NCBI GenBank assembly: GCA_963702075.1
Contig: OY969703.1
Span: forward strand, 2,528,203-2,592,202
Source of the DNA: an uncultured Actinomycetes bacterium
GTDB lineage: Bacteria; Actinomycetota; Thermoleophilia; Solirubrobacterales; 70-9
Direction of reading: 5' to 3'
Length of the DNA: 64,000 nt
Part shown: piece by piece, positions 15,532-56,014 of the stretch
Position numbering within the stretch: the stretch's first letter is position 1
Layout of the letters: every line of letters starts with the position of its first letter
The notes under the pieces: generated by a model
Databases searched by the model: none
What the model was told of the DNA's origin: nothing
The model's input: the letters and a program-made list of their open reading frames with translations, nothing else
Made by a program: the position numbers and the translations under genes

Positions 15532-15627
15532 GAAAGAGCAATATAGAGGCTAGAACGAGCAGTAAAGCCCAGATTTTGGGCGCTGCCGCGCAATTGCCGA
15601 GCTTTTCCATCCGCTCGCTCAAGCAAA

Positions 15628-36511: not shown

Positions 36512-36605
36512 GTGTATCGGCTAACAAAACGGAGACCTGAAGATCACACGCCGAATTTCCCGCATTTGGAGCAGAAAGATGATCTATTGCCCGGACGCAG
36601 CGAGG

Positions 36606-36664: not shown

Positions 36665-39600
36665 CTAGCGGCTCTTCTTAGAGCGCTTGCCGCCGCAGCG
36701 AGCCTTCAGCGGCGGGTTGAACACATGCCGCTTGCCGTTTTGCCCGGTAAAGCTGGCCTTCGCACGGTGGTTGCCTCGACAGATGTTGGTGCTGTTGACG
36801 AGCAGGCCCTTCTTGCCGCCCTGCATTTCGAGGACGAACTTGGTCACCGGGGCGTCGGGAACCGCTTCGAAGGAGTTGCGGATCCCTCCGTCGACCGAGT
36901 CGATCCGACCGACGAGGTCGATGTCCACCTTCGCCGAGTGCAGCGCGGCTACGAGGTCGGGTAGCGGATGATTGGACGAGCGCAGGTAGACGCGCCCGAC
37001 CAGCGGTTCGTCGAGTAGAGGAGATACCGCTCTCGCGCGGCCATAGATGGACCGCTTGGGGCACTGACTGCCGTTGCCGTTGCCAGCCGCGAACTGGACC
37101 CGGGTGCAAATCGTGCCGATGTGCCCCTGTTCCAGGAACTCGGAGTGGGGAAGTTTGACTACGGCTGCCCCGATGTTGGCGTCGCCTTTGCGGGCGGTGA
37201 GAACGGCTTTGAGCGCCGGATTGGCTCCGCGCCTGGTCCCGCCCTTGAGGGTCAGCGCCAGCTTCGGCTTGAAGCCGAGACGGGCACAGTCGGCGGCCTG
37301 GAAGGGCGAGGTGACGTCAACTGGCGAAAGGCCGGAAACAGAAGCCGAAGCGGTCATCCGTTCACAGCTGGTCGGATTGAGGACGAAGTCCTTGCGGTCG
37401 ACGTAGATCCGGATGTCCCGCGCGTGGACGACGATCCCCTGCAGGATGTGCGGGATCGGGTCTCCGCTCGAGCCGTCGGTCGAGACTTCGGCCGTGTTCG
37501 GATCGACCTTCAGCCCTTGGCGGATGACGACGTTGCCGAGGTCGAAAGGACCGACCTTGGCCGTCGTGATCGCCACGACCGACAGCTTGGTCCCTTTATA
37601 CGGGCCGGCGAGATAGACCTTGCCCGGGGCGTAGGTCAAGGTCGGCCCCACTCCGGCACCCACCAGGGTCCGCCCGATCTGCGAGGCATCCGGGCAGCTC
37701 GGGTGTTCGAGCTCTTCCTGACCGCCGTTCGGCCCCGTCCTCGTGCGGGCCGCGGCAATCGCCGCATCCGAGCAGAACGGAATGCCGGACAGATTCCCGA
37801 TCACGCCCTTCGGCAGCTTCAGGGAGAAGGTCGTGAATTCCTGTTCCCCGTCCTGTCGCGTCAGTCGCACGTCCAGCGGCGAGTATTTACCGGCAGCGTT
37901 GTTCTCCGTCCCGGCGGTGAAGCCCGGCTTGAACGGCGGCGTCCCGCTCGGGCAAGCACTCCCGTTGGGCCCATGATCGACCGTGAACGAACTCGTCCTG
38001 GTGACGATCTCGTTTGGCTGTGGGTTGTTCGGATCCGCAGCGTTCCAAGGCGTGAACTTCGCCGTGATGTCGTACTTGCCGCACGTCGCCGGCATGACCA
38101 GCGGCGCCCGATCGCCTTCTTTGAAGTGCAGGTTGAAGGTGCTGAATGGGATCTGCGGCAGGTTGTCGAAGGTGGAAACCAACTGCCCCGTAGCCGGGTT
38201 CAGCTCCACCTTGCCAGCTTGTTTGACCAGGATTCCGCGGTCGGGAATCTTCGCCACCACATAGAGGGCGAGCAACGACCCGAAGGGGTTGTCATAAGGC
38301 GCGGCCACGTAGACAGATCCGTGAGCTTCCTCTTCGAGCAGCGGCGTCGTGATGTCGACGTTCCCGATCTTCGAGGATTCAGGACAACCTTCACCGGGCG
38401 TCGAATCGAACCTCTCCCGCGCGTAATCCGTCGGCGTGCAGGCGTCCAACCCATTTGCCTGCGACGGATTCACCGTTATCCCTTCGGGCAGCGTCACTTC
38501 AACCTTCTTCGCCTGCCCTTCGGCGACCTTCGCGTTCGGGTCCAGCAGCCCAGAGTTTGGCATGTCAACGCGGAAATCAAGTCCGCTCGCCGTTCCGGCA
38601 TCTGGGTTGGTCGGAGACGCCGCGATGCTCGGATTGAAAGGCACTTGGTTGCAGCCGACCATGTTCGGCTGCGTCGAGTTCGCTTGCTGGACCACGGTTC
38701 CGAGCGGGACATTCCAGGGTTCGAGTTCGACTCGGAAGTCGAGAGGACTTGCGCAGGAGACCGGCTGGCGAAGGAAAGCGGTTTCACCGAGGCCATTCGG
38801 CCGCCCGCAGGTTCCCTGTGCCCGGAAGTACACGCAGTTCCAGCCCCTCGCGCTGTCATGACGGGAGTCCCCCGGCGAGCCCCAAAGGCTCACCGTGCTC
38901 GAGAGGAAGTTGGCGACCTGGGTCGCGTTGTTGACCAATGCGACGATGCGGTAGCCGTTGTCGGGATCAACAGCCGTATCGATGACCACCGGGGTCCCGA
39001 CTGCCATGAAGCCAAAGCGGGCCGGCTCTCCCTCGGCGGGCACAAGATTGAAAACCGGCACAGCAACGCGGAGCAGGCCGAAGGTCGCCGGTTCGATGAT
39101 GGTGACCGTAGTGACCCCGACGGCGGTGGCATCGGGACATTCGTTAGTCAGTTCTTCGGTCGTGGTGAGGAAGCTCACCATCGGGCATTTGGGAGTGGCG
39201 GTTGCGCTGCCCACAAAACCCGCCGGCAAGGAGAACCGCACGTTTCGGGGGAGCCCCGGCTGTTCGATGAAAGCGTCTCTGCGGTTGCCTCCGTTCAGGG
39301 CCGCCGTGTTGAGCTGGATGGTCGTCGTCAGCTGAAAAGGATGGGCTCCAGCCCGGGTCGTGGGAGCGCCGCCCTCTTCTTCTGATTGTGAGGAGGTCTG
39401 TTCGATGCCGAAGGGGGTGGGTTCCGGGCTGACTTTGACGACCTGGGGGACCGAGAGCGAGGGGGCATTTGCGCCTGAAACGGTGACAGTGCCCGGCGCC
39501 CCGGCGACCGGCGGTTCCCCAATCAGGTTGGCGAGGATTTCGACTTCGATCGCTTCATAGGAGGGGAGCGTCTTTTCGAAGGTGCAGGAGACTTCTACCG

Positions 39601-40339
39601 GCGATTCGACCGTGCAGTCCACTCCGCCGATCGTTCCCTGGGCACCGGCGAACGCTTCGACTCCAGCTGCTTCCACACCCTCCGGCAGGTGATCGACGAT
39701 GGTAACCGGAGTTTCCGTGGCATCAACCGGAGCATCGCCAAGGTTCGTCAGGGTCAGGACGAGCCGGCCGCTGCCACCGTTCTCCAGAATTTTGGCTTTC
39801 GCGCTCCCCAGATTTCCGAAAACTTCGTTTTCGACTGGCTTGACACTAATGACGGGCTCGGCATGCTTCGGAACCGTGATCACGAACGGGGCACCGCCGA
39901 CAGGCCCGCCCGTAACTTTGACAGCATTCGTGCCGAATGCGACTTCAAGAAGCGCCTTTAGTTGTGCCGCAGTTTCGGTAGGCGGAAAGCCGGTGTTGTT
40001 TTCGCAGAAGACTTCCCCGAAGAAGTTCGCGGTGCCGAGGCAGCCGATCAGTTTGCCCCCGACCCTGAGTTCGATCGCCGCGATCTGAGATCCGAAGAGT
40101 TCCTTGGTTCCGGTTTCGATTTCCTGGACGTTGTCGGTTGGCTCCCAGAGGTTCGTCGGCCGACTACCGGTCAGAACCTGCCACCAAGGTTGAGGCGCCG
40201 CGGAGGCTTGGGCAGGCAGCACCGCGAGGGCGCCGAAAGCGAGGATGACGAGGGTGAGCTGCCTGAGCCGTAGGAACATGGTCGAGAACTCCCTGGTTGC
40301 GGCACGATCGAGATCGGGGGTCTGCTGCACGCGCCTCAT
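36665..40339 (-). CDS. large secreted protein of unknown function: DUF11/CARDB-like N-terminal region plus four tandem copies of an unrecognised module of about 170-200 aa (Cys-x(14-25)-Cys-Pro)
   Basis: 1224 aa. The ATG at 40339 overlaps the upstream stop (ATGA); an alternative ATG is at 40279 (MFLRLRQLTLVILAFGALAVLPAQASA, a signal peptide). Coding periodicity is consistent throughout. The repeats are described in the findings. Confidence 0.8.
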   Translation of the reverse strand: MRRVQQTPDLDRAATREFSTMFLRLRQLTLVILAFGALAVLPAQASAAPQPWWQVLTGSRPTNLWEPTDNVQEIETGTKELFGSQIAAIELRVGGKLIGCLGTANFFGEVFCENNTGFPPTETAAQLKALLEVAFGTNAVKVTGGPVGGAPFVITVPKHAEPVISVKPVENEVFGNLGSAKAKILENGGSGRLVLTLTNLGDAPVDATETPVTIVDHLPEGVEAAGVEAFAGAQGTIGGVDCTVESPVEVSCTFEKTLPSYEAIEVEILANLIGEPPVAGAPGTVTVSGANAPSLSVPQVVKVSPEPTPFGIEQTSSQSEEEGGAPTTRAGAHPFQLTTTIQLNTAALNGGNRRDAFIEQPGLPRNVRFSLPAGFVGSATATPKCPMVSFLTTTEELTNECPDATAVGVTTVTIIEPATFGLLRVAVPVFNLVPAEGEPARFGFMAVGTPVVIDTAVDPDNGYRIVALVNNATQVANFLSSTVSLWGSPGDSRHDSARGWNCVYFRAQGTCGRPNGLGETAFLRQPVSCASPLDFRVELEPWNVPLGTVVQQANSTQPNMVGCNQVPFNPSIAASPTNPDAGTASGLDFRVDMPNSGLLDPNAKVAEGQAKKVEVTLPEGITVNPSQANGLDACTPTDYARERFDSTPGEGCPESSKIGNVDITTPLLEEEAHGSVYVAAPYDNPFGSLLALYVVAKIPDRGILVKQAGKVELNPATGQLVSTFDNLPQIPFSTFNLHFKEGDRAPLVMPATCGKYDITAKFTPWNAADPNNPQPNEIVTRTSSFTVDHGPNGSACPSGTPPFKPGFTAGTENNAAGKYSPLDVRLTRQDGEQEFTTFSLKLPKGVIGNLSGIPFCSDAAIAAARTRTGPNGGQEELEHPSCPDASQIGRTLVGAGVGPTLTYAPGKVYLAGPYKGTKLSVVAITTAKVGPFDLGNVVIRQGLKVDPNTAEVSTDGSSGDPIPHILQGIVVHARDIRIYVDRKDFVLNPTSCERMTASASVSGLSPVDVTSPFQAADCARLGFKPKLALTLKGGTRRGANPALKAVLTARKGDANIGAAVVKLPHSEFLEQGHIGTICTRVQFAAGNGNGSQCPKRSIYGRARAVSPLLDEPLVGRVYLRSSNHPLPDLVAALHSAKVDIDLVGRIDSVDGGIRNSFEAVPDAPVTKFVLEMQGGKKGLLVNSTNICRGNHRAKASFTGQNGKRHVFNPPLKARCGGKRSKKSR

Positions 40340-43300
40340 CGCGAGGCCTTTCGGCCGTGGCCGGCTTTCCTGTGCTGGTGCTTGTGCTTGACGCAGCGAG
40401 ACTTGCCGTGACGGCGCACCTTCCGCTCGCCCTTTCGGCAGTGAACCTTTGCCGCCCCGACATTGCCTGGCCCAGAGAAGACCGAGCTCGACGGCGTGGG
40501 GTCATTCGGCGGCGTGCCATGTGCCTGGCATGCTTCGCCGAGGCATTCGACGCGAGGAGTGAGGCTCCCGGGACTGCCGTTAACGCGGGCATCGTAGACA
40601 TCCAGCTCCGAGTCTTCATCGACAGGATTGAGCCTCGCCGGCGTCATGAAGAACACGTCGTCGCCGCTTTCGCTGGCATCGAGGAATCCGGCTTCGCTTT
40701 TCCCGGTGCCCGAGGAGAGCAGCGACACGCAGCCGCCGGCACTCCTCGCGGTAGCCGCATCGCCGGAGGCCTGGCTGCAACTGCCCAGGACCGCGGGCTC
40801 GTACTGGTAGACATCCCATCCGCCGTTCGCGTCGGCTGGCACCAGCGAATCCGCAGCGTTGAAGAAAACGCGACCATTGTCGAGCACGGCCCGGGGGGAG
40901 TAGAGCGATATCTCGCTCAAGACATCGGAGACCGTGGGCTCGGGCAGAACGGCCTCGATCTGGTCCCCTTCCCACTGGCGGCGTGGATCCACCAGCTTGA
41001 TCACCCCCGCCAGTTCTCCTTCGGGAGCGGCGCCACTCGGCTTACAGGAGATACAGGCCAATTGGTCGACGTTTGCGTCGTAGCGATAGACCCGCTGGAC
41101 TGGTTCGCCGGTTTTGGAATCAAGGTTGTCGTTGCCGGCGAGAGGGCGCTCGGAGGCGAAGGCAAAGAAGCGGCCGCTGGGCGATGCGGCGGCACTCAGG
41201 CGTGAGGCGATCCCCTGCGAAGTACCCCAGTCATGTTCGTCTTCTTTGGAGAGAGTTCCTATGTAACGTACGCCCTCGCCCTTGCGCCAGACGTAGAGGT
41301 TTGGCTTTTCGGGGGCGGCGGTTTCACCCTCTTGGTTGGGGGCAGGGTCCAGAACCCCAAGAGCAACGAAGTAGACCGTCAAACCGTCATCGCCGACGCC
41401 GGGCGCAAGGCCCTGGACTTCGGCGCTTTCTCCGGAGAGCCCGGCGGGAACACTGATGTCGACGAGGCTGCTGCAACCAGATGCGACCGAGCCAGCCGGG
41501 ATCTCACACCGATAGAGGTCGCGTCCGCTCGGGCTGGCGTCGCCCGTCAGCTGCTGGGAATCGGTGAAGAAGACCGCGGTTCCATCCGTGCTCGCCCCCT
41601 GAAAGATCGGTTCTGACGCACCCGAACCGCCTCCCCCAAGGGGTACGTCGATCCGAACCGTTTCCTCGGCCACCGTGTCGCGCAGGTAGAGCGCGGTGAA
41701 GTTGTGAGCGCTCCAAAAGATGCGCGACCCGTCGCTCGAGATCGCGTTGTCAACCGTGTGGCCGGTCGAGATTTGATGGCCTCCCGAGCCGAGGGTTTCG
41801 GTATCCGCGAGCCCACCACCTTCCGTCGAGGGCAGAACGCTAATCGGCCGCAGCCCTCCCGCGCTCCATAGGTAGAGGCTGTTGAACGGCGGCGGCGGCG
41901 CCCCCTCGACAAGCGGCACCTGAGCATTCAGGACCACGTGCGCCATATCGGGCGTTGCCCCTGCGATGTTTACGGGGCCGAGCGGGTTTCGTGGATCGCC
42001 ACCGAATTCCGTACCGCCGGGAACGTTCCCTGCGGTGATCAGCGGCGTGAAGACAGGCGGGTCCGTGCTCTGCCGGAGATACGGGGTTCTTTCAGTCGCC
42101 TGGGAAGAAAGCCCCACGGTGGTGCGCGGTTCGACCAAACCCGCAGACAGGTCGCGGCCGAAGAGCTTGTATTCGCTCAGCGAGCCAACTGGAATCTGGG
42201 TGACGCTGCCATTGGGAAGGGTGATGTCCTTGGAACTCCACCCCGTTGCGGCCCGGCGAGCAAAGACCGTCGAAGCTTCAGCCGTTCGGTTCCCCGCCGG
42301 CTCTGGTTCGATCGACCCGCGGCTGGCGTAGACGATGCTTTCCCCGTTCGCGGCAGCCTGAACATGGGCATTTTGCGAGCCCTGGAGCACCGCGCCATGC
42401 TTATTCGGAGGCGACACGATCTCCCAGGCTCGCGAGTCGCTCAGCTGAAAACCGAGCGAACTGGTCTCGGTTCTGAACGTGTGGTTGGATTCCAGGGCCA
42501 GATTGCTTCCTTCTGAGTTTTCCGCGAGAACCCGGTAGTGGTAGACCGTGTTGGGGGCGAGGCCGGTTAGAGCCTGGGACACGCGGACACCCTTGTCGCC
42601 GCTGCCAATATCCACGGCAGTGGCAGGAACTGAGGTGCAGGGGTCGAGCGAGCAGTCTTCGAGCCCATATTGGAACACGTAGGTCGTCTCGTGAGAGCCG
42701 GGATTGATTTCAGCAGTCAACGTCGCCGAGTCGCCGCTGACTTCGGTGACGGAAATATGTTCGACCCGAGGCGGTCCCTCATATTTTTCTCTGGGCTTGA
42801 AGATCTCGACCCGGGAGGGCTCGCCGGTCACCGTGTTGGCGACGAAGATAGCCGTGTTTTCACCGTCGATTCCAACTCCTTGGGCAAATTCGACTTCACC
42901 TTCCTCGCCCACTCCTGCAAAGGTCGCCAGCAGGTTTCCCGCTTCGTCATACCATGCGATCTTGGGATCGGACACCTTCTGGGCAACGTAGACGTCATTC
43001 GTTGCTGGATCGACCCCCACCGCATAGGCAGCTGTCGCATCGACAGGTTCCGAGGCGGCAGTGTACGTCGTTAGAGGCGTAACCGGATACACCGAAGGGG
43101 TGAACTTAAGGACGGGTGCTCCGGCGGCATTTCCAAGATTGAGAAACAGGTCGCCATTCATGTCGACAGCGCCGTTGGCAGGATGGGGAGTGGAAAACAC
43201 CGTGATCTGTTCACCGGTTGAGGCAAAGATCGTCACCGTTTCGGCGAGAGTGTCGATTGCGTAGATATCGCCATTCGCGTCCACGGCCACGCCCGTGAGT

Positions 43301-43767
43301 TTGGCGAAGCCAGTAAGTCGATCAGTACCGGCGTCGGAACCGGCCGTGAACTCGGCCGGTTCCCCGTCCGGTTGGAAGACACGCAGGGAATTGGCGTCGG
43401 TGACGTAGAACTCATGGGTGGTCGAGTTGACAGCCACTTGACTCTCACCCGATCCCGCAGAGAGACCTAGACCGCCGATCACGTTCCCCGAGATGTAGCC
43501 AGCGGACCCTCCAAAGTTCGCCGGTTCTCCTCCCGAGTCGAATCTCAGCAGCGAGCCGTTGCCGCGATCGAGAACGTAGACCCAGTGTTCTTGCTGATCA
43601 ACTGAAATCGATCCCGCTTCTACGAAACTGCCTGGACCTATCCCGTCAGGTCCAAAGCTGCCGCTGAATTCGGGTGATTCGGCCGCAGAAGCCGACCCCG
43701 TGACGCTGAGGACGATCAATAGGCAACCAATCAACAGTGCCCCGCCGCTAAAGAGGCGTGCTCGCAT
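40336..43767 (-). CDS. large secreted protein: NHL-type beta-propeller, FN3-like domain, TolB/PD40-like beta-propeller and a basic Cys-containing tail
   Basis: 1143 aa from the ATG at 43767, which has GGAAGGGG 7 nt upstream. The signal peptide is MRARLFSGGALLIGCLLIVLSVTGSASA. NHL-like blades include YVLDRGNGSLLRFD, FYVTDANSLRVFQPDGE and IYAIDTLAETVTIF. The FN3-like part is LTAEINPGSHETTYVFQYG...NTVYHYRVLAENSEGS. PD40-like repeats include SSDGSRIFWSA, STDGTAVFFTD and DNGRVFFNAAD...WDVYQYE. Confidence 0.8.
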   Translation of the reverse strand: MRARLFSGGALLIGCLLIVLSVTGSASAAESPEFSGSFGPDGIGPGSFVEAGSISVDQQEHWVYVLDRGNGSLLRFDSGGEPANFGGSAGYISGNVIGGLGLSAGSGESQVAVNSTTHEFYVTDANSLRVFQPDGEPAEFTAGSDAGTDRLTGFAKLTGVAVDANGDIYAIDTLAETVTIFASTGEQITVFSTPHPANGAVDMNGDLFLNLGNAAGAPVLKFTPSVYPVTPLTTYTAASEPVDATAAYAVGVDPATNDVYVAQKVSDPKIAWYDEAGNLLATFAGVGEEGEVEFAQGVGIDGENTAIFVANTVTGEPSRVEIFKPREKYEGPPRVEHISVTEVSGDSATLTAEINPGSHETTYVFQYGLEDCSLDPCTSVPATAVDIGSGDKGVRVSQALTGLAPNTVYHYRVLAENSEGSNLALESNHTFRTETSSLGFQLSDSRAWEIVSPPNKHGAVLQGSQNAHVQAAANGESIVYASRGSIEPEPAGNRTAEASTVFARRAATGWSSKDITLPNGSVTQIPVGSLSEYKLFGRDLSAGLVEPRTTVGLSSQATERTPYLRQSTDPPVFTPLITAGNVPGGTEFGGDPRNPLGPVNIAGATPDMAHVVLNAQVPLVEGAPPPPFNSLYLWSAGGLRPISVLPSTEGGGLADTETLGSGGHQISTGHTVDNAISSDGSRIFWSAHNFTALYLRDTVAEETVRIDVPLGGGGSGASEPIFQGASTDGTAVFFTDSQQLTGDASPSGRDLYRCEIPAGSVASGCSSLVDISVPAGLSGESAEVQGLAPGVGDDGLTVYFVALGVLDPAPNQEGETAAPEKPNLYVWRKGEGVRYIGTLSKEDEHDWGTSQGIASRLSAAASPSGRFFAFASERPLAGNDNLDSKTGEPVQRVYRYDANVDQLACISCKPSGAAPEGELAGVIKLVDPRRQWEGDQIEAVLPEPTVSDVLSEISLYSPRAVLDNGRVFFNAADSLVPADANGGWDVYQYEPAVLGSCSQASGDAATARSAGGCVSLLSSGTGKSEAGFLDASESGDDVFFMTPARLNPVDEDSELDVYDARVNGSPGSLTPRVECLGEACQAHGTPPNDPTPSSSVFSGPGNVGAAKVHCRKGERKVRRHGKSRCVKHKHQHRKAGHGRKASR

Positions 43768-44096
43768 GAACTGTTCCCCTTCCTTCGCCGGTGTAACCGA
43801 CCGATACGCCCCGCGACTCGCGTCCCCGAGCCGGTTCCCCCCCTTGAGGGATGAGCTGAGCTGATTCCCACTCAGAAACCTAACGACTCCGGAGCAAACG
43901 GGGAAACTTTGTAGCCCAGACAAAAGTTCTGTCCTTGGCAGCGGGCTCAAAAGTTCCTGGAATTATCACTACAGCAAATATTCGCACGTGCATCCCTGAG
44001 CCCTCGACAGCTCCTCTTTTCATGTCTCTAAATGGGGTGGGGTGGGACCTATGCGGCCCCGCCCCTTCAATCCGTACTTCCTTGCTTGATATCGGT

Positions 44097-44792
44097 CTAG
44101 CATGTGAACGTCATATTCTGAGCGAAAGTCAACGTCCTTTCGCCATCCTGGGAAGCCGTCGTAGCTGCGCCTCCGTTCTGGCTCGAGGTGAGAGCGAATT
44201 TCGTGCCGGTTGTTGTGACCTGAGTCCACTTCTGTGTGCCGGTCGCCGGCGATTCGTACTTCACCGTCGCGGTTTTCTGTACTGCGCCGCACGTGGTCGG
44301 CGCGGTCATTTCACCGATGATGCCGTTGCCGTTGATGACCTCGCTCACCAAACCTCCCCCGCAGATGAACGAGGCAAAGTGCCCGGCGTTCGGTGTGAGC
44401 AAGATGCCGCGGACCTCGGGTGGCCCTTTCTCGAGGATGACGTTGTGCCCGATCAGATCTGTCGTTTTGATCGAGCCAGAGGCCTGGCCGGTGGACGTGC
44501 ATTTGCTGCCGAAGAGGTTCTCCGTGCAGTTGCTGAACGTCAGTGTGACTTCTGACGATGTCGTGGCCGTGGTTTGCTGGCCGGCGCCGGCGACAGAGGT
44601 ACAGGTCATTTTCAGGCTCGAACCGTCGGCTGTTACGGGGACCGTGTTCCCGATACTGGCCAGATTGAACGCAACCGGGAAGCTACCGTTCGCCGGATCG
44701 AGGCTCCATTCTCCGGCCGTAGCCAGGGCCGGCAGGACGAACATCGCTGCGCTGATCGCTGAGAGGGCGAGCAGGAGGATCTTCTTGCTCAT
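44097..44792 (-). CDS. secreted six-Cys protein, GEW family, tandem copy 1
   Basis: 231 aa. The signal peptide is MSKKILLLALSAISAAMFVLPALATA, followed by GEWSLDP. It has six Cys and ends ...MTFTC. It is about 90% identical to copy 2. Confidence 0.8.
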   Translation of the reverse strand: MSKKILLLALSAISAAMFVLPALATAGEWSLDPANGSFPVAFNLASIGNTVPVTADGSSLKMTCTSVAGAGQQTTATTSSEVTLTFSNCTENLFGSKCTSTGQASGSIKTTDLIGHNVILEKGPPEVRGILLTPNAGHFASFICGGGLVSEVINGNGIIGEMTAPTTCGAVQKTATVKYESPATGTQKWTQVTTTGTKFALTSSQNGGAATTASQDGERTLTFAQNMTFTC

Positions 44793-45069
44793 GTTTGCCT
44801 TTCACGTCTGGTCTCGGCAGGAGATCTGCGATCTGTTTGCCGGACTATTGTGTGCGGGTCGGCCGCTCTTTCGTCTGCCAACCCACCTTTCCCCCACATC
44901 TCTAGCCGCACACGGCTAAGAGCACAAAGATATCTGAGTTTTTTAGCGCAGTCACGTGATCACCTAGCGGAATGTCCCCGCACTCCCCAGAACAACGGGA
45001 CATCACCCTCGCAAAGGCACGCCTAATTGAGTTCTGCATGAACCTGACTCCTATTGGTGAGCGGAACCA

Positions 45070-45100
45070 CAAAAAGGCCGGGGGACAACTGGCCCCCGGC
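45070..45100 (-). terminator. rho-independent terminator after GEW copy 2
   Basis: The minus-strand RNA reads GCCGGGGG-CCAGUUGU-CCCCCGGC followed by CUUUUUG. It lies 30 nt downstream of the stop at 45130. Confidence 0.7.
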
Positions 45101-45129
45101 TCATTATTCAGTGCTAGATCGTCAACTTC

Positions 45130-45822
45130 CTAGCATGTAAACGTCATGTTTTCGGCGAACGTCACAGTCCCTTCGCCGTCCTGGGAAGCCGTCGTAGCTG
45201 CGCCTCCGTTCTGGCTCGAGGTGAGAGCGAATTTCGTGCCGGTTGTTGTGACCTGAGTCCACTTCTGTGTGCCGGTCGCCGGCGATTCGTACTTCACCGT
45301 CGCGGTTTTCTGTACTGCGCCGCACGTGGTCGGCGCGGTCATTTCACCGATGATGCCGTTGCCGTTGACGACAACGGCAACGAGTCCCCCGCCGCAGGAG
45401 AACGAAGCAAAGTGCCCGGCGTTCGGTGTGAGCAAGATGCCGCGGACCTCGGGCGGCCCTTTCTCGAGGATGACGTTGTGCCCGATCAGATCTGTCGTTT
45501 TGATCGAGCCAGAGGCCTGGCCGGTGGACGTGCATTTGCTGCCGAAGAGGTTCTCCGTGCAGCCGCTGAACGTCAGTGTGACGTTGCTCGATGTCGTGGC
45601 CGAGGTCTGTGAGCCGTTACCGGCGGCACTGGTGCAGGTCACTTTCAGGCTCGAACCGTCGGTTGTCAGGGTCGTGTTCCCGATACTGGCCAGATTGAAC
45701 GCAACCGGGAAGCTACCGCTCGCCGGATCGAGGCTCCATTCCCCGGCCGACGCAACCGCCGGCAGGGCGAACATCGCTGCGCTGATCGCCGAGAGGGCGA
45801 GCAGGATGATCTTCTTGCTCAT
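45130..45822 (-). CDS. secreted six-Cys protein, GEW family, tandem copy 2
   Basis: 230 aa. The signal peptide is MSKKIILLALSAISAAMFALPAVASA, followed by GEWSLDP. The Cys scaffold matches copy 1. Confidence 0.8.
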   Translation of the reverse strand: MSKKIILLALSAISAAMFALPAVASAGEWSLDPASGSFPVAFNLASIGNTTLTTDGSSLKVTCTSAAGNGSQTSATTSSNVTLTFSGCTENLFGSKCTSTGQASGSIKTTDLIGHNVILEKGPPEVRGILLTPNAGHFASFSCGGGLVAVVVNGNGIIGEMTAPTTCGAVQKTATVKYESPATGTQKWTQVTTTGTKFALTSSQNGGAATTASQDGEGTVTFAENMTFTC

Positions 45823-46082
45823 GCTTTACCTTTCGATTCAGGTCTCGGCAGGATGGTCTGGAACCTGTTCTTGCCGGACCAGTTGTGCGGGGTCGGCGGA
45901 CGCTTCCGTCGACCCGCTCTTTCCTCTACATCCCTAGCCGAGACGCAACTAATGGATCAAGGCATCCTGTTCATTCAGGGATATCCGTTGGTTCGGGCCT
46001 ACGCACTACCCCTGCAAATAGGCCAAAACCAATCTTTAGCTTTCGCAGAACTGTGCCCTCAAGTTAGGTCGGCGCTGGCGGA

Positions 46083-46538
46083 TCAGAGGATCCGAGGGCA
46101 GGTTTTCAAGCCGTAAGCCTTTGCTTCGCGCTCGAACTGAGGGACGCTTGACTGGAGCGCCTTTTTAGGTTCTTCTTCCATCATCTGGCTCGCGTGAGAC
46201 AGCGTGCTGACCATGTGGGCTACTTCGGCTCGATCCTTTTCGGGGGCCATAAGGGTTTCCAGTTGTTCCGCCTGGCCCTTCAGCGCTGGCGCGATTACTT
46301 CACGAAAACCGTCTTCAAGCTTGCTTTCAGCTTCAGCGGGGCCGCCGGGTAATTCCTTCCTCCAGGCATCGGCCGCGGCTTCCCGCTCCTGGGTTGCCTT
46401 CGTACAGATCGCGTCGGCTTGCTTGATGAACTGTGCCTTGGTGAGAGGCGCCGACGTTGCTTCGTCTCCCGAGCTTCCGCAGCCAGCTGCCATGCAAACC
46501 GCTGCTACCACTCCTATAACCATGATCAGCCTGTACAT
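46083..46538 (-). CDS. lipoprotein of unknown function
   Basis: 151 aa, with GGGAGGAG upstream. MYRLIMVIGVVAAVCMAAGCGSSGDE is a lipobox-like signal. The mature part is helical and charged. Confidence 0.65.
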   Translation of the reverse strand: MYRLIMVIGVVAAVCMAAGCGSSGDEATSAPLTKAQFIKQADAICTKATQEREAAADAWRKELPGGPAEAESKLEDGFREVIAPALKGQAEQLETLMAPEKDRAEVAHMVSTLSHASQMMEEEPKKALQSSVPQFEREAKAYGLKTCPRIL

Positions 46539-50445: not shown

Positions 50446-51357
50446 ATGAGCATCAGCGTCGAGCCACACCCCCTGCACGAGCCGCTTGCCGGCGGCACCC
50501 GCGGCGCCACCGTGGCGGTCGAACCCCTGGTCGCCGGGCACGTCGAATGGTCGCGGGCGATGATGGTCAGCCCCGGCGGCGGGATGCTGACCGCGAAGCT
50601 CTTGCGCGCGCTGCTGACCAACCAGAACCCCATCGCGGTGCCGGTGCCGGCCTTCCTGATCCGACATCCGAGCGCCGGGGCGATCCTCGTCGACACCGGC
50701 CTCCACCCCTCGATCGCGACCGACCCGCGCGAGAACTTCGGCTCGCTCGCCGCCCGCTTCAGCAAGATCACCCTGGAGCCGGGCGAAGACGTCCCCTCGC
50801 AGCTGCGCGAGCGCGGGCTCGAGCCGGGCGAGATCCCGGTCGTGGTCATGACCCATCTCCACCTCGACCACACCTCGGCGATCTCCGAGTTCCCGAGCTC
50901 CACCTTCGTCGTCTCGGAGACCGAGTGGCAGGCGGCCGCCCACGGCCCGAACCCGCTGATGAACGGCTACCGCCGGGCCCACTTCGACTACGCCTTCGAG
51001 TACCGCACGGTCGACTTCGACCGCGCCAACATCTCCTCCTACGCCGGCTTCGGCCGCACCTTCGACCTCTTCGGCGACGGCTCGATCCGCCTCGCCTTCA
51101 CCCCCGGCCACAGCGCCGGCCACATGTCGATCATCTGCCATCTCGCCGAGCGCGATTTCGTGATCGGCGGCGACTGCGTCTACATGCTCGCCCAGCTCGA
51201 CGGCGACGAGGCCGGGCCACCGCGCCCCCAAGACGCCCATAACTACCGCCGCTCACTGCAGGAGCTGCGTCTCTTCCGCCGCCAGTTCCCCGATTCGATC
51301 GTCACGCCCGGCCACGATCCGGACTTCTACGCCCAGATCAAGCAGCGCTACGAGTAG
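50446..51357 (+). CDS. MBL-fold metallo-hydrolase (lactonase-like)
   Basis: VVMTHLHLDHTSAI ... TPGHSAGHMS is the HxHxDH metallo-beta-lactamase motif. Confidence 0.85.
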   Translation: MSISVEPHPLHEPLAGGTRGATVAVEPLVAGHVEWSRAMMVSPGGGMLTAKLLRALLTNQNPIAVPVPAFLIRHPSAGAILVDTGLHPSIATDPRENFGSLAARFSKITLEPGEDVPSQLRERGLEPGEIPVVVMTHLHLDHTSAISEFPSSTFVVSETEWQAAAHGPNPLMNGYRRAHFDYAFEYRTVDFDRANISSYAGFGRTFDLFGDGSIRLAFTPGHSAGHMSIICHLAERDFVIGGDCVYMLAQLDGDEAGPPRPQDAHNYRRSLQELRLFRRQFPDSIVTPGHDPDFYAQIKQRYE

Positions 51358-52045
51358 CGAGCGCGTCGTGCATCGCGCGGACGCGGCCGAAGACCTCGGT
51401 CGCGACTTCGAGCTGACGCTCGCGGCTCGGCTCGCTCTCGACCGGGAAGGTAAGCGGCTCGCCGAACTGGACCGTGACCTTGGGGAAGCGCAGGCGCTTC
51501 CAGCTGCGGACCCGCTCGGAGCCGTAGATGCAGACGGGGACGATCGGCGCCCCGGTTTCGAGCGCGATGCGGCCGATCCCGGGCTTCGGCTCCCCGAGCT
51601 CGCCCGAGCGGGAGCGGCCGCCCTCGGCGTAGACGAGCAGCATCTCCCCTTGCTCGACCAGGATCCGCGCGGTCGTGATCGCCACCTCGTCGTGGTGGCC
51701 GCGGCGGACCGGGAAGACGCCCCCGTGCTTGTAGACGTAGGTGAGGACAGGCGGACCGAAGAGCTGGGATTTGGCCATGAAGCGGATCTTCCGGCGCAGG
51801 TATAGGCCGGCGAAGAAGTGGTCCATCTGGCTGAGGTGGTTGGGGGCGAGGACCAGCGGGCCTTCCTTCGGCACGTTCTCGACCCCGATCGCCCGCACCC
51901 GGTAGATCAAGAGCGTCGGGAGCGTGAGGACGATGCGGGCAAAGGTGTAGGTCCAGCCGACGCCCTTGCGCGCCGCCTCGTGGAACTGCGTGAAGTACTC
52001 CGCCGGGCGCGGGTCCTTGTAGACCTGTGGCTTCATCTCGGCCAT
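51338..52045 (-). CDS. plsC: 1-acyl-sn-glycerol-3-phosphate acyltransferase
   Basis: 235 aa from the ATG at 52045. LVLAPNHLSQMDHF (the HX4D motif) and VYAEGGRSR are present. The N-terminal 364 codons of the 599-aa track ORF overlap glpK out of frame and were rejected. Confidence 0.85.
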   Translation of the reverse strand: MAEMKPQVYKDPRPAEYFTQFHEAARKGVGWTYTFARIVLTLPTLLIYRVRAIGVENVPKEGPLVLAPNHLSQMDHFFAGLYLRRKIRFMAKSQLFGPPVLTYVYKHGGVFPVRRGHHDEVAITTARILVEQGEMLLVYAEGGRSRSGELGEPKPGIGRIALETGAPIVPVCIYGSERVRSWKRLRFPKVTVQFGEPLTFPVESEPSRERQLEVATEVFGRVRAMHDALATRSAA

Positions 52046-52104
52046 ATCGGGGTGGCGGCGAGGGTGGTCGCCGTGCTTCTGCCTACCCAGGCCGATCCGG
52101 CGGG

Positions 52105-53544
52105 TTACGCCCAGTCGCGGGAGCGTTCCAGCGCCCGGCCCCAGTCCGCCAGCAACGCCGCTCGCTGCGCCTCCTCCATCCGCGGCTCGTAGCGGTCCGC
52201 CTCCCGCCACATCTGCCCCACCTGCTCCAGGGACCAGAGGCCGGTGGCGATCCCGGCCAGGTAGGCGGCGCCGAGGGCGGTCGTCTCGGCGATCTCCGGA
52301 ACCGAGACCGGCGCCCCCAGCACGTCGGCCTGGAACTGCATCAGCCAACGGTTGACGGTGGCGCCGCCGTCGGCCCGCAGCAGCTCGAGCCGCTCGCCGC
52401 AGGCGGCCTCCTGCGCCCGCACCGCGTCGACGGTCTCGTAGGCGATCGCCTCCAGCGCCGCCCGCGCCAGGTGAGCGCGGGCGCTGCCGCGGGTGAGGCC
52501 GACGATCGTGCCGCGTGCATACGGATCCCAGTAGGGGGAGCCGAGGCCGGTGAGCGCGGGGACGAAGTAGACGCCGTCGTTGGAGTCGAGCGAGGCGGCG
52601 AGCGCCTCGGTCTCCCCCGCCTCCCCGATGATCCCGAGGCCGTCCCGCAACCACTGCACCGCCGCGCCGGTGACGAAGATCGCCGCCTCGAGCGCGTAGG
52701 AGACCTCCTCCCCGGTGCTGGCGGCGACGGTCGCCAGCAGTCCCTCCGGCGCCTGGGGCGGCTCGGTGCCGCTGTTGAGGAGGACGAAGCTGCCGGTGCC
52801 GTAGGTGTTCTTCGCCATCCCCGGCTGGTGGCAGGCCTGGCCGAAAAGAGCGGCCTGCTGATCTCCCGCGACCCCCGCCACCGGGACCTCGCCGCCGAAC
52901 TCGCTCGTGGTTCCGAAGACGCAGGACGAGGGCAGCGGCTCGGGCAGCCGCGCCGGGTCGACTCCGAGCAGCCCGCAGAGCTCCGTGTCCCAGGCCAACT
53001 TGCGGATGTCGAACAGCATCGTCCGCGAGGCGTTCGTGTAGTCGGTGACGTGGCGGCCGGTCAGCTTGAACAGGAGCCAGGAGTCGATCGTCCCGAAGAG
53101 CGCCCGCTCGACCCCCTCGGCGTTGCGCAGCAGCCACTCGATCTTGGTGCCGGAGAAGTAAGGGTCGATGGTGAGACCGGTCCGCTTCCGCACCAGCGAT
53201 TCGTGCCCCGCCTGCTTCAGCTCCTCGCAGCGCGCCGCGGTGCGGCGGTCCTGCCAGACGAGCGCGCGGTGGATCGGCTCGCCCGTCTGCGGGTCCCAGG
53301 CGACGACCGTCTCCCGCTGGTTGGTGATCCCGATTGCCTCCAGCTCGGGGCCGCCGGCGTCGGCGATCGCCTCGACGGCGACCCGCCGCGTCACCTCCCA
53401 GATCTCATTCGCGTCGTGCTCGACCCACCCCGGCCGCGGGAAGAACTGCTCGAACTCGGAGTAGGCGCGACCGGCAATCGCGCCGTCCCGGTCGAAGACG
53501 AGACAGGTGGTTCCAGTCGTCCCCTGGTCGATCGCGAGGATCAC
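52105..53544 (-). CDS. glpK: glycerol kinase
   Basis: 479 aa from a GTG start. ILAIDQGTTGTTCLVFD...GWVEHDANEIW...ITNQRETVVAWD is the FGGY kinase / GlpK signature. Confidence 0.93.
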   Translation of the reverse strand: MILAIDQGTTGTTCLVFDRDGAIAGRAYSEFEQFFPRPGWVEHDANEIWEVTRRVAVEAIADAGGPELEAIGITNQRETVVAWDPQTGEPIHRALVWQDRRTAARCEELKQAGHESLVRKRTGLTIDPYFSGTKIEWLLRNAEGVERALFGTIDSWLLFKLTGRHVTDYTNASRTMLFDIRKLAWDTELCGLLGVDPARLPEPLPSSCVFGTTSEFGGEVPVAGVAGDQQAALFGQACHQPGMAKNTYGTGSFVLLNSGTEPPQAPEGLLATVAASTGEEVSYALEAAIFVTGAAVQWLRDGLGIIGEAGETEALAASLDSNDGVYFVPALTGLGSPYWDPYARGTIVGLTRGSARAHLARAALEAIAYETVDAVRAQEAACGERLELLRADGGATVNRWLMQFQADVLGAPVSVPEIAETTALGAAYLAGIATGLWSLEQVGQMWREADRYEPRMEEAQRAALLADWGRALERSRDWA

Positions 53545-53550
53545 GGGGCG

Positions 53551-54342
53551 CTACTTCTGGACCCTGCAGGTGCGGATCAAGGTCGAGGAAAGCTTGCGCC
53601 CGTCGGCGAAGGTCATCGAGACCTTGGAGAAGGGGAAGGTCGCGCTGGTGAACCCGGCCGGGGCTGAGCAAGCGGCGCTCAGGTAGCTGTGCTTCTGCCC
53701 CCGGTAGACGAAGGTTCGCCGCAGCTCGAGGCTGATCTTCTTCAGGTAGCCCGAGCGATTGAGGCGGGCGGGCAGGGCGGCGCTGAGGGTCGTCCCGAAG
53801 GCGCCCACGTGCGCTTGATGGATGTGGAAGACGATGATGCGGCTGTTCGGCACCGGGTCGCCGCCATAGACGTGGGCGAGAATCGCCCGCTGGCCGTCGA
53901 TCACGGCATTGAAGGCGAGGACGCGCCCCTGCAAGGGGAAGCGGTCCTGTTCGGGCAACGCGAGGGCACCGAGGTAGCGGCCTTCGCCGACCAGGGCCGG
54001 CCGGCACGCTTCCAGCGCCTGCTGCGAGGTGGCCGGTTCGATCTGCGAGCGGCGGCAGGTCGGCAGGCCGCGGGTGTCGATGACGCCGCCACGGTTGATC
54101 GCGATCGAGATGTGGCGTAGCGCCGGCGGCCGTTCGCCCGAGAGGACCCTGACCGTGCCGTCGACCCGAACCGCGATCGGCGCCCGCTCAACTCGCGGCA
54201 GCGCCGTCGGGGCGATGCCGCCGTCGAACTTGACGAAGAGGTTCCCCCGCTCGACCAGCTCGGCTCGTGCGATCGACGCGACGAGGAGGCCCGCGATCAT
54301 GAGGCTGGTGAGCACGACAACCTTCTTTCCCCTCCGCTGCAT
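53551..54342 (-). CDS. secreted protein consisting of one copy of the Cys-x16-Cys module found four times in the 1224-aa protein
   Basis: 263 aa. The signal/TM segment is VVVLTSLMIAGLLVASIARA. LPTCRRSQIEPATSQQALEACRPALVGEGRY...PLQGRVLAFN aligns by eye with IGTICTRVQFAAGNGNGSQCPKRSIYGRAR...PLVGRVYLRS of module 4. The stop is 6 nt before the glpK start. Confidence 0.7.
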   Translation of the reverse strand: MQRRGKKVVVLTSLMIAGLLVASIARAELVERGNLFVKFDGGIAPTALPRVERAPIAVRVDGTVRVLSGERPPALRHISIAINRGGVIDTRGLPTCRRSQIEPATSQQALEACRPALVGEGRYLGALALPEQDRFPLQGRVLAFNAVIDGQRAILAHVYGGDPVPNSRIIVFHIHQAHVGAFGTTLSAALPARLNRSGYLKKISLELRRTFVYRGQKHSYLSAACSAPAGFTSATFPFSKVSMTFADGRKLSSTLIRTCRVQK

Positions 54343-54533
54343 CGAGCCAGACTAACGCCGGTCGACCTTCTCAGTGCCGAATTACCCAGACAGGCACAGT
54401 CGACCTCTTTCGTGCGCAACGAACTCAGGTGTCTTTGACCCCCCGACCGAAAGGCGTTAGACCGGTGGAGGAATCCGGGGCCCGTCCCATATACGAGGGT
54501 TTCAAGCAGGGCTCCTCAACACGAAAGGCCATT

Positions 54534-55208
54534 ATGAAAAGGCTATTAGTACTCTCAATTACTGCGCTCGCCACCACCATCCTAATTCTCCCAGCGGTAG
54601 CGTTTGCAGGAGAGTGGGAAATGGATCCTGCAGGATGGGCCTTTGCGGTCAACGGCGTCGGCAATACCGTCTTGACAGCGGGCAATAATGGAACAGTTAC
54701 CTGCACCGCTGAGCAAGGCATAGGCGCGTACAACGCAGGATCAAAGACGACCGGCACTATCGAGCTGACGCTGAACGGATGCAAGGAGTCGGTCTTCGGC
54801 GCCAACTGCAATTCGGCGGGTCAGCCCGCTGGCTCGATCACAACTACAAAAATGACGTTTACAAACACCTACCTCACCGACAATAAGACGACACCCGGGA
54901 TCACAATTCGAGGCACGGGATCCGAAGAGCACTATGCGACTTTCAGTTGCGCCGGTGGGCTGGTGCAGGTTGTAGTCAGGGGAACAGTCTTAGGCGACTC
55001 CGAGCTCGAATGTAATACCGAAACCAAAGAACATAAGTTTGTGTTTGAATCGGTTGCCCACGGCGTTCAGAAGTACATGCAGGTAACAGGGACAGGGTCG
55101 ACCGAGGATCTGACCGTGACGATGAATGGTGGCGCCGCCGTGACAGCGTCTATCGATTCCACAACAATCTTGAAATCCAACGAAGCTGGCAAAATTACAT
55201 GCGTGTAA
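54534..55208 (+). CDS. secreted six-Cys protein, GEW family, divergent third member
   Basis: 224 aa from the ATG at 54534. The signal peptide is MKRLLVLSITALATTILILPAVAFA, followed by GEWEMDP. Shared blocks with 44097/45130 are LTLNGCKESVFGANCNSAGQPAGSITTT, ATFSCAGGLV, QKYMQVTGTGS, NGGAAVTASID and a terminal ITCV. Codon usage is visibly AT-richer. Confidence 0.75.
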   Translation: MKRLLVLSITALATTILILPAVAFAGEWEMDPAGWAFAVNGVGNTVLTAGNNGTVTCTAEQGIGAYNAGSKTTGTIELTLNGCKESVFGANCNSAGQPAGSITTTKMTFTNTYLTDNKTTPGITIRGTGSEEHYATFSCAGGLVQVVVRGTVLGDSELECNTETKEHKFVFESVAHGVQKYMQVTGTGSTEDLTVTMNGGAAVTASIDSTTILKSNEAGKITCV

Positions 55209-55235
55209 TGCCGTAAGGGTTCAGGATGTTTACGA

Positions 55236-55267
55236 GGAGGCGCGGATAATCTGCGCCTCCCTTTTCC
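55236..55267 (+). terminator. rho-independent terminator after the third GEW-family gene
   Basis: GGAGGCGC-GGATAATCT-GCGCCTCC is followed by CTTTTCC. Confidence 0.6.
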
Positions 55268-55992
55268 TAACGACGCTGCAATAGGCGGGAGAGGAACACT
55301 AGGGCGAAGTCGCGGAGCTGGCCGGCGCGGTGGAGGAAGCCTCTGAGGTCCCGGCCGGTGGCGCGGTGCTCCAGGTCGAGCTCGTACTCGCGCAGGCGGT
55401 AGCCGCCGCGGACGGCGTCGACGGTCATCCCGATCTCCATCCCGAAGCCCTTGGCGAACGGGAGGGTCGCGCGCAGGGTCTCGACGCGGAGCGCTCGCTG
55501 GCCGGAGATCGGCGCCGTCGCCTCGGCGCCGCAGAGGCGCCGGATCGCCCAGTGGGCGAACCCGAGCGCGAGACCGAAGCCGCCGCCCAGGCGCCGACTG
55601 AAGGCGGCGACCGCGAGGTCGCACTCACCCTGCTCCACGGCCGCCACCAGCGGCGCCAGACGGGCTGCCGAGGCGCCGAGGTCGCCGTCGCAGAGGAGGA
55701 CGACCCGCGGCGGGGACGGCACGCTCAGCGCCGCCTCGGCGGCGGCGGTGACATTGCCGCCCTTGCCGTGGGAGCGGCCGCGCCGCACCACCTCCGCCCC
55801 CGCCAGCATCGCCGCCTCGGCGGTGCCGTCCTCGGAGGCGTCGTCGGCGACCCAGACCCTGGCCCCGGGAAATGCCTCGCGCAGCGACCGCACCGTCTCC
55901 CCCACCCGGTCGGCCTCGTTGCGGGCGGCGACGATCGCCGCCAGCCCTTCCCCTTCCCCCGCCGCCGGTTCAGGTCCCGGGTTAAGTCCCAT
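55267..55992 (-). CDS. GT2 family glycosyltransferase
   Basis: LAAIVAARNEADRVGETVRSL...VWVADDASEDGTAE...LLCDGDLG is GT2 (GT-A fold, DxD). The start is the ATG at 55992 or at 56016. The remainder of the 539-aa track ORF is shadow. Confidence 0.75.
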   Translation of the reverse strand: MGLNPGPEPAAGEGEGLAAIVAARNEADRVGETVRSLREAFPGARVWVADDASEDGTAEAAMLAGAEVVRRGRSHGKGGNVTAAAEAALSVPSPPRVVLLCDGDLGASAARLAPLVAAVEQGECDLAVAAFSRRLGGGFGLALGFAHWAIRRLCGAEATAPISGQRALRVETLRATLPFAKGFGMEIGMTVDAVRGGYRLREYELDLEHRATGRDLRGFLHRAGQLRDFALVFLSRLLQRR

Positions 55993-56014
55993 CACCGGGC
56001 TATTGTCCCCGGCC

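Follow-up and report, generated by a model that had tools for sequence, protein, structure and literature searches.

Multi-copy families of variable surface proteins in which orphan cassettes lie near a conserved expression locus include the pilS/pilE-type cassettes and the variable lipoprotein arrays. Among structural systems, tandem beta-sandwich domains with disulfides form an extracellular stalk in the integrin alpha-subunit legs (thigh, calf-1, and calf-2) and in the Ig-like domains of pilins and of microbial surface components recognizing adhesive matrix molecules (MSCRAMMs), such as ClfA, SdrG, Bbp, RrgA, FimP, and Sgo0707. Here we describe a locus that recalls both kinds of system. It lies in a 64,000-nucleotide stretch of DNA from an uncultured Actinomycetes bacterium of the order Solirubrobacterales (contig OY969703.1, positions 2,528,203 to 2,592,202; G+C 67%), which we will term the window. 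The gene in question, GEW3 (54534-55208, plus strand), encodes a 224-amino-acid secreted protein with six cysteines and is an orphan paralogue of the GEW genes of an island with the order lp152-GEW(n)-big1204-BIG1224. GEW3 is an intact, self-contained, and compositionally foreign gene that was inserted into a core gene row, next to the gene for a 263-amino-acid exported protein that we term mod263. Our interpretation, which we hold to be likely, is that GEW3 is an orphan cassette of the island's fast-diverging GEW family and that the partners of GEW proteins are the two giant proteins of the island, big1204 and BIG1224.

The GEW genes are similar to the pilS/pilE-type cassettes in that they form arrays, vary in number, position, and orientation, diverge quickly, and lie at synteny breakpoints. 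However, GEW copies have their own promoter-like region, ribosome-binding site (RBS), and signal peptide, so they are not silent cassettes. We saw no sign of programmed variation, and the GEW genes are not accompanied by a recombinase or invertase. The integrin legs and MSCRAMMs are the best Foldseek neighbours of modules 2-4 of BIG1224 and the highest-probability ones of mod263, and the layout is integrin-like in that a propeller "head" (big1204) is encoded beside such domains, or fused before them. In contrast, the TM-scores are only 0.1-0.36, there is no sequence similarity, none of the C-termini of the window proteins showed an LPXTG-type sorting motif, and we saw no sortase gene in the examined loci. 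Thus, the likeness to integrin legs and MSCRAMMs is an architectural analogy and not membership. Finally, some proteins with an NHL or SGL beta-propeller and InlB B-repeats (PF01436, PF08450, PF18998) have a C-terminal mod263 domain, whereas the mod263 of the window is a stand-alone protein.

An intact GEW gene inserted into a core gene row

We compared the window with the surroundings of mod263 orthologues (64-95% identical) in 80 metagenomic loci, to which we added seven loci found via GEW and mod263 homologues (L001-L007) and seven found via BIG1224 homologues (L088-L094). All loci were annotated with family hidden Markov models (HMMs) and reference proteins, and the homologues that carry names are all "Solirubrobacterales bacterium". 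The order of the conserved block is bioD-bioF-bioB, GH3, (GGDEF) HhH-ECH-biotinyl protein, and GT2-(72-amino-acid open reading frame)-mod263-glpK-plsC, where GT2 is a family-2 glycosyltransferase. It continues with LacB, a short-chain dehydrogenase (SDR), F420, SDR, glyoxalase, and flavodoxin genes, then the lp152-GEW(n)-big1204-BIG1224 island, if present, and then a gene for an RTX-like protein. The window has the same order.

Within this block, the row around mod263 is nearly invariant. In 63 loci, the sequence reaches 900 nt or more upstream of mod263. In 62 of these, mod263 is preceded by GT2, or by a small 72-amino-acid open reading frame (s72) after GT2, and in none of the 63 is it preceded by a GEW gene. 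Downstream, the neighbour was glpK in 59 of 60 loci. In the window, the row consists of GT2 (55267-56010, minus strand), which is its first gene in the relatives; mod263 (53551-54342, minus strand); glpK (52105-53544, minus strand), which starts 7 nt past the mod263 stop and encodes the glycerol kinase GlpK (TIGR01311, 612 bits); and the gene for a PlsC-type acyltransferase (51338-52060, minus strand), which closes the row.

GEW3 interrupts this row. When the window is aligned with five close relatives, nucleotide homology is lost at 55291 and picks up again at about 54290. Where these relatives have about 55 nt, the window has 1,000 nt (54291-55290) without homology in them. In close relatives, the GT2 stop overlaps the mod263 start (in L001, GT2 is at 1389-2060 and mod263 at 2048-2836). 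The G+C of the inserted segment is 52-59%, as compared to about 70% in the flanks. GEW3 itself has a G+C of 0.53 and a third-position G+C (GC3) of 0.60, which is the lowest GC3 among all copies; the GC3 is 0.905 for mod263, 0.946 for glpK, and 0.911 for GT2. Given the homology break, the low G+C and GC3, and the terminator, RBS, and upstream motif that the gene brings along, we conclude that GEW3 lies on an insertion.

The inserted gene appears to be complete. The divergent intergenic region between mod263 and GEW3 (54343-54533, 191 nt) contains a GEW-type upstream signature (TTGACC … TTAGAC … CGAAAGG RBS). The general form of the signature is TTGAC, about 17 nt, TAGA/G, and then a CGAAAGG RBS, and we found it at every GEW site: in the window at 54420-54533, 44793-45129, and 45823-46082, and in the upstream regions of L001, L013, and L014. 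This implies that the duplicated unit brings its own promoter. The RBS of GEW3 is GAAAGG, and the signal peptide of its product ends in AVAFA before GEWEMD. GEW3 and GT2 are convergent, and a hairpin that resembles an intrinsic terminator lies between them (55236-55260, plus strand; 11 pairs, of which 8 are GC, then CTTTTCC).

As an aside, this hairpin lies before a T-run and may serve as a bidirectional terminator for GEW3 and GT2. Also, the public annotation gives GEW3 as a protein of 195 amino acids that starts with Met30 and thus has no signal peptide (window 54534-54623). The ATG at 54534 is a better start given the GAAAGG RBS and the agreement with the alignment of paralogues. The public calls for mod263 (254 amino acids) and BIG1224 (1,204 amino acids) have later starts too.

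Because the insertion is between GT2 and mod263, it cuts GT2 off from mod263-glpK-plsC, so that these three genes now depend on a promoter within the new intergenic region or beside it. The single candidate promoter that points toward mod263 is a consensus match at 54558-54531 (minus strand), which overlaps the right edge of the intergenic region and the start codon of GEW3.

How did GEW3 come to this site? We propose that, in the window's lineage, local duplication or recombination moved one GEW copy by about 8 kb, as a self-contained cassette that has a promoter-like region, an RBS, a signal peptide, and a terminator of its own. The copy landed between GT2 and mod263 and split the GT2-mod263-glpK-plsC row. 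The nearest relatives of GEW3 are the cluster-site GEWs of L001, L002, and L013 (51-59% identical), and its subtype (AGEWEMDPAGW…) is the cluster-site type in these three loci, while the cluster site of the window has another subtype. We also considered recent horizontal transfer of GEW3 from outside, but we prefer a local relocation because the same subtype is found at the cluster site in close relatives.

A different view of GEW3 is that it is a decaying or silent duplicate, without a function at its site, that acts as a reservoir for gene conversion into the cluster-site GEWs. The GEW genes are cassette-like at many sites, and there are fragments or pseudogene-like pieces in L088, L090, and L094. 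The distribution of the GEW3 subtype and its low GC3 would also fit. However, GEW3 is a full-length and intact open reading frame with all six cysteines, a signal peptide, an RBS, the shared promoter-like motif, and a terminator. Furthermore, GEW3 is only 42% identical to GEW1 and GEW2, which makes homogenising gene conversion with them unlikely. Overall, this explanation is very unlikely.

The GEW family and its island

The initial annotation identified GEW3 as a diverged member of the six-cysteine family at 44-46 kb, divergently transcribed from mod263 about 190 nt away, and our results agree. The two cluster-site copies, GEW1 (44097-44792, minus strand) and GEW2 (45130-45822, minus strand), are 90% identical to each other, and GEW3 is 42% identical to GEW2 over 218 amino acids (BLASTP, E = 9e-45). 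According to tblastn, the window contains exactly three GEW copies. We defined the family with a 14-sequence alignment, in which the conserved cysteines of GEW3 are at positions 57, 83, 92, 139, 160, and 223. GEW3 has the hallmarks of the family: a signal peptide that ends in A-x-A, followed by G-E-W/F, and six cysteines including one at the C-terminus. Six cysteines are present in 47 of the 61 full-length members.

GEW genes change quickly. There are 0-5 copies within 10 kb of mod263 and up to 9 in L088, which is a tandem-cluster locus. Their number, position, and orientation differ between close relatives, and they occupy several intergenic sites. The median identity of GEW proteins between loci is 37%, as compared to 64-94% for the flanking mod263. 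In L051, L054, L065, L071, L073, and L083, arrays of 1-4 GEW copies flank the HhH…plsC block at rearranged or inverted synteny junctions. Local rearrangements may thus be mediated, or marked, by GEW paralogues.

The GEW family is co-inherited with big1204 and BIG1224. Of 25 non-redundant clusters, 22 have a GEW gene at most 1.8 kb upstream of big1204, and some of these 22 are in unrelated genomic contexts (L092 and L093). The three kinds of gene are present or absent jointly across loci, and they are also duplicated together: L088 (2560-23720) and L094 (3441-23678) each contain two complete, tandemly arranged GEW(n)-big1204-BIG1224 clusters, which in L088 are separated by a DDE transposase gene (14902-16287) and GEW fragments. 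So, the well-supported partnership is that of the GEW family with these two giant secreted proteins.

In the window, the island extends from 36665 to 46538 and all of its genes are on the minus strand. The first gene is lp152 (46083-46538), which is small and lipoprotein-like, has a GC3 of 0.63, and is missing wherever the island is missing. After GEW2 and GEW1 comes big1204 (40336-43950), the middle gene, whose secreted product has an NHL-type beta-propeller and an fn3-like domain. The last gene is BIG1224 (36665-40339), which encodes an N-terminal domain and then four diverged beta-sandwich modules with two disulfides each. The GC3 of the island is 0.63-0.79 (0.60-0.79 across lp152, big1204, BIG1224, and all three GEW genes). 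Averaged across loci, GEW genes have a GC3 of 0.675 and the N-terminal domain of BIG1224 has one of 0.669, as compared to 0.906 for mod263. Except for a borderline NHL-repeat match in big1204, no Pfam or NCBIfam family matched the island genes above its curated cutoff. This is a clearly delimited and mobile four-gene island for disulfide-rich secreted proteins, one of which is a fast-evolving and multi-copy member.

The association of GEW with mod263 is quite different. The initial annotation viewed the GEW3-mod263 pair as a second, unlinked co-occurrence of the two families and hence as independent evidence for a partnership. But the two loci are just 7.7 kb apart (from the end of GEW2 to mod263) and within one conserved syntenic block. 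Nor is adjacency enriched: besides the absence of GEW genes among the upstream neighbours of mod263, there was no GEW gene within 1 kb of mod263 in any of the 30 loci with at least 3.5 kb of flank on both sides. The sole other contig with the divergent arrangement of GEW and mod263 is L014 (1.8 kb). Ten loci retain mod263 without the island or any GEW gene (L006, L017, L018, L019, L024, L025, L028, L034, L040, and L077), and in these loci, the flavodoxin gene is directly followed by the RTX-like gene. Conversely, the islands of L088, L089, L092, L093, and L094 have no mod263-family gene within 10 kb. As GEW3 is a lineage-specific insertion, its proximity to mod263 is accidental and not a second conserved pairing. 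The window is thus a case in which shared synteny mimics "independent" co-occurrence. (In L002, a 262-amino-acid gene beside a GEW pair seemed to be a candidate for a second mod263-GEW pair, but we rejected it: its product is flavodoxin-like and BLASTP gave E = 1.1.) Of the secreted system of partnered families that was originally proposed, what stands is GEW with big1204 and BIG1224, and relatives of mod263 that are sometimes recruited; the mod263-GEW pair at this site does not.

Alternatively, the GT2-mod263-glpK-plsC row and the island, about 20 kb in all, could be a single unit for envelope biogenesis, with the GEW gene near mod263 reflecting selection for proximity. Canonical synteny always places the island 6-8 kb from mod263. 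Also, in a second class of genomes (L051, L054, L056, L065, L071, L073, and L083), GEW arrays flank the HhH-…-plsC block on both sides at 2-3 kb, and some genomes have mod263 paralogues or domains within the island. However, the intervening genes are unrelated housekeeping genes (a metallo-beta-lactamase fold protein, short-chain dehydrogenases, an F420H2-dependent quinone reductase of PF04075, glyoxalase, and flavodoxin). Moreover, the island is missing from that site in the ten loci listed above and is at unrelated sites in L092 and L093, and its composition sets it apart from the core genes. We regard a single unit as unlikely.

mod263 and the modules of BIG1224

The 263-amino-acid exported protein is as first described: mod263 is an open reading frame with a signal peptide (ending in IARA before ELVERG) and four cysteines, in two conserved pairs (96/113 and 225/259). 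These four cysteines are invariant in the family alignment, and homology extends over the full length. The family is large, with 1,558 word-indexed hits and 1,457 clusters at 50% identity (E ≤ 1e-3). For mod263, GEW1-3, and BIG1224, no Pfam or NCBIfam family scored above its curated cutoff, and the sub-threshold matches were at chance level. Searches of PDB sequences with the mod263 and GEW profiles gave no match, and a literature search found nothing relevant. In a search for known anti-phage defence systems, PADLOC gave 0 families for six proteins (mod263, GEW, BIG1224, big1204, and lp152 were tested), and for known RNA families, Rfam gave 0 matches on the window at gathering thresholds. In sum, the island and the mod263 domain family are real and uncharacterised. 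There are three sizeable unannotated protein families here in an abundant soil order, and mod263 alone has about 1,450 clusters and no Pfam model.

The claim that the 1,224-amino-acid protein has four modules is borne out. We cut a 120-orthologue alignment of BIG1224 at positions 311, 571, 801, and 1023 (the modules are at about 311-570, 571-800, 801-1022, and 1023-1224) and compared the pieces with hhalign. The probability was 97.9% for M2-M4 (E = 6e-13), 95.5% for M2-M3, 57% for M1-M3, and 20% for M1-M2. All 20 cysteines from position 242 on, which include every module cysteine, are invariant in the 120 orthologues. In the N-terminal domain, Cys100 and Cys112 are present in 106 of 120.

It was also proposed that mod263 is essentially one stand-alone copy of this module. 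The quoted motifs and cysteine spacings are indeed in the sequence, but every sequence test was at the level of the controls. The best BLASTP match of mod263 to BIG1224 was a 24-amino-acid stretch with E = 0.31. For the mod263 family, we made an HMM of 78 sequences (the window protein and 77 diverse members that are 31-56% identical to it); searched against all open reading frames of the window, it did not match BIG1224 even at E < 10. With hhalign, mod263 versus the whole BIG1224 family and versus each module gave probabilities of 0.2-1.8% (E = 0.03-0.6), and the probability was still under 2% when we merged the modules, added secondary structure from AlphaFold2, or used the fused-domain subfamily of mod263. 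As negative controls, the GEW profile against the modules gave E = 0.19-0.55 and mod263 against the N-terminal domain of BIG1224 gave E = 0.49. We also ran module HMMs (hmmsearch) against 150 diverse mod263 members and against shuffled and reversed decoys: there was no shift in scores except for P0159. We considered P0159 as a bridge sequence and rejected it, as it is a real fusion of M4 to mod263. Since the sequence tests are at control level, the profile-profile comparison speaks against mod263 being a copy of the module.

What is similar between mod263 and the modules is only the spacing of four cysteines, the order of secondary structure elements, and the broad class of beta-sandwich fold. 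The spacing is 17/112/34 in mod263 and 15-26/94-110/26-43 in the modules. The order of elements in the AlphaFold2 models (by DSSP) is similar: strands, Cys, helix, Cys, 6-9 strands, Cys, hairpin, and Cys. The model of mod263 is an all-beta fold with one helix (predicted local distance difference test, or pLDDT, of 93.3). Foldseek against PDB found nothing for it at E ≤ 1e-3; its highest-probability neighbours, which are weak, are 8gcd_A, 8t2v_A, and 4igb (probability 0.94-0.98). The model of BIG1224 modules 2-4 has a pLDDT of 74.9, and its Foldseek matches are integrin alpha legs and MSCRAMM or pilin adhesins (E down to 5e-6, with low TM-scores); the three chains named for mod263 are among them. 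Mod263 and the modules may be remotely homologous, although we lean slightly against it.

These points bear on the model behind the initial annotation, in which mod263 is a free-standing BIG1224 module, GEW is its dedicated partner, and the window contains this two-family secreted system twice. Besides the cysteines and the order of secondary structure, both proteins have a G-x-V/L strand motif 20-26 residues past the second cysteine, the weak alignments that hhalign gave to M1-M3 run co-linearly with this register, and both sets of models point to the beta-sandwiches of integrin legs or adhesins. L014 repeats the divergent pair. There are also loci where relatives of mod263 join the island. 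L090 and L091 have a gene for a 262-amino-acid mod263 paralogue (38% identical, E = 6e-58) whose start overlaps the BIG1224 stop codon; it is operonic with BIG1224 and lies downstream of four GEW genes, big1204, and BIG1224. In L007, a mod263-like gene is divergent from and adjoins lp152-GEW-big1204-BIG1224. And in P0159, which is a fragment, an M4-like C-terminus (E = 2e-9) is joined in frame to a mod263 domain that lacks a signal peptide, as if this domain were a fifth module. However, the model must contend with sequence similarity at noise level, with the upstream contexts of mod263 (62 of 63 without GEW adjacency) and the lack of any GEW gene within 1 kb in 30 loci, with mod263 being retained where GEW and the island are missing, with islands that have no mod263-family gene nearby, and with GEW3 being a compositionally foreign insertion. 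It therefore seems improbable to us.

Among the 150 best mod263 representatives, at least 14 are proteins with an NHL or SGL propeller and InlB B-repeats (PF18998) in which the mod263 domain is at the extreme C-terminus. These fusions are 600-1,000 amino acids long (P0134, P0136, P0173, and at least 11 others), and their propellers resemble residues ~100-390 of big1204 (E to 2e-12). A search with the mod263 HMM found no mod263 domain in big1204 itself. As relatives of mod263 join the island in some loci and are absent from others, we view the mod263 fold as an occasional accessory of the propeller and leg proteins and not as a partner of GEW. The stand-alone mod263 of the core row would act with the envelope-lipid and glycosylation genes of its transcription unit.

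Two local variations on these arrangements may be mentioned. In L085 (2626-6704), glpK is preceded by a tandem array of three mod263-family genes, and we detected no GT2 upstream of them; this is a local expansion of the core gene. In L090 (13732-15602) and also in L091, the mod263 paralogue is followed by a gene for a 361-amino-acid secreted protein with a sub-threshold match to the HtaA domain (E = 0.0036).

A putative surface apparatus

If GEW proteins are partners of big1204 and BIG1224, what might they do together? We suggest that GEW proteins are variable and exchangeable partners or subunits of an extracellular apparatus that is stabilised by disulfides. This apparatus would consist of the propeller protein big1204 and a stalk of beta-sandwich modules like those of integrin legs or MSCRAMMs (BIG1224), and its role would probably be adhesion or surface recognition. 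GEW3, although an orphan, would then still supply this assembly. The mod263 domain would be a distinct and widespread beta-sandwich with two disulfides; where it is fused at the C-terminus or operonic, it could serve the apparatus too, plausibly as a cell-proximal base or docking domain. If the island does encode such an apparatus, then it provides an entry to the cell-surface biology of the largely uncultured Thermoleophilia, and the GEW arrays would exemplify local genome rearrangement that is driven by paralogues.

A bolder version of this proposal is that the Solirubrobacterales have an integrin-like, modular surface apparatus in which big1204 is the head, BIG1224 is a disulfide-containing leg of four modules, and GEW is a hypervariable partner. 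In this version, mod263 would be a remote fifth or base module (fused, operonic, or in trans), and the GEW arrays would be both exchangeable specificity subunits and recombination hot spots that reshuffle the surrounding chromosome. We consider this version rather improbable.

We return to our preferred interpretation, that GEW3 is an inserted orphan cassette of a family whose partners are big1204 and BIG1224. Several considerations weigh against it. First, there are no mobile-element genes or repeats flanking the GEW3 insertion. Second, since L014 shares the divergent arrangement of GEW and mod263, this arrangement is not a one-off and exists in at least one other organism. Third, the common 191-nt divergent promoter region could impose co-regulation on GEW3 and mod263. 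Fourth, the low GC3 of the island could be due to family-specific codon or amino acid usage instead of foreign origin. Fifth, our view of each locus spans 10 kb on either side, so the GEW copy counts describe that span and not whole genomes. Finally, the suggested roles in adhesion, docking, or a surface apparatus are inferred from architecture and from weak fold matches (TM-scores of 0.1-0.36).

The C-termini of big1204, BIG1224, and mod263 have a cysteine and then a short basic tail (…HCRKGERKVRRHGKSRCVKHKHQHRK…, …ARCGGKRSKKSR, and …TCRVQK, respectively), and those of the GEW proteins end in …TC(V). Directly downstream of BIG1224 is the gene for a protein with RTX-type calcium-binding repeats (35786-36520, minus strand; PF00353, 31.9 bits). 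With a GC3 of 0.91, this is a core gene, and it is kept with or without the island.

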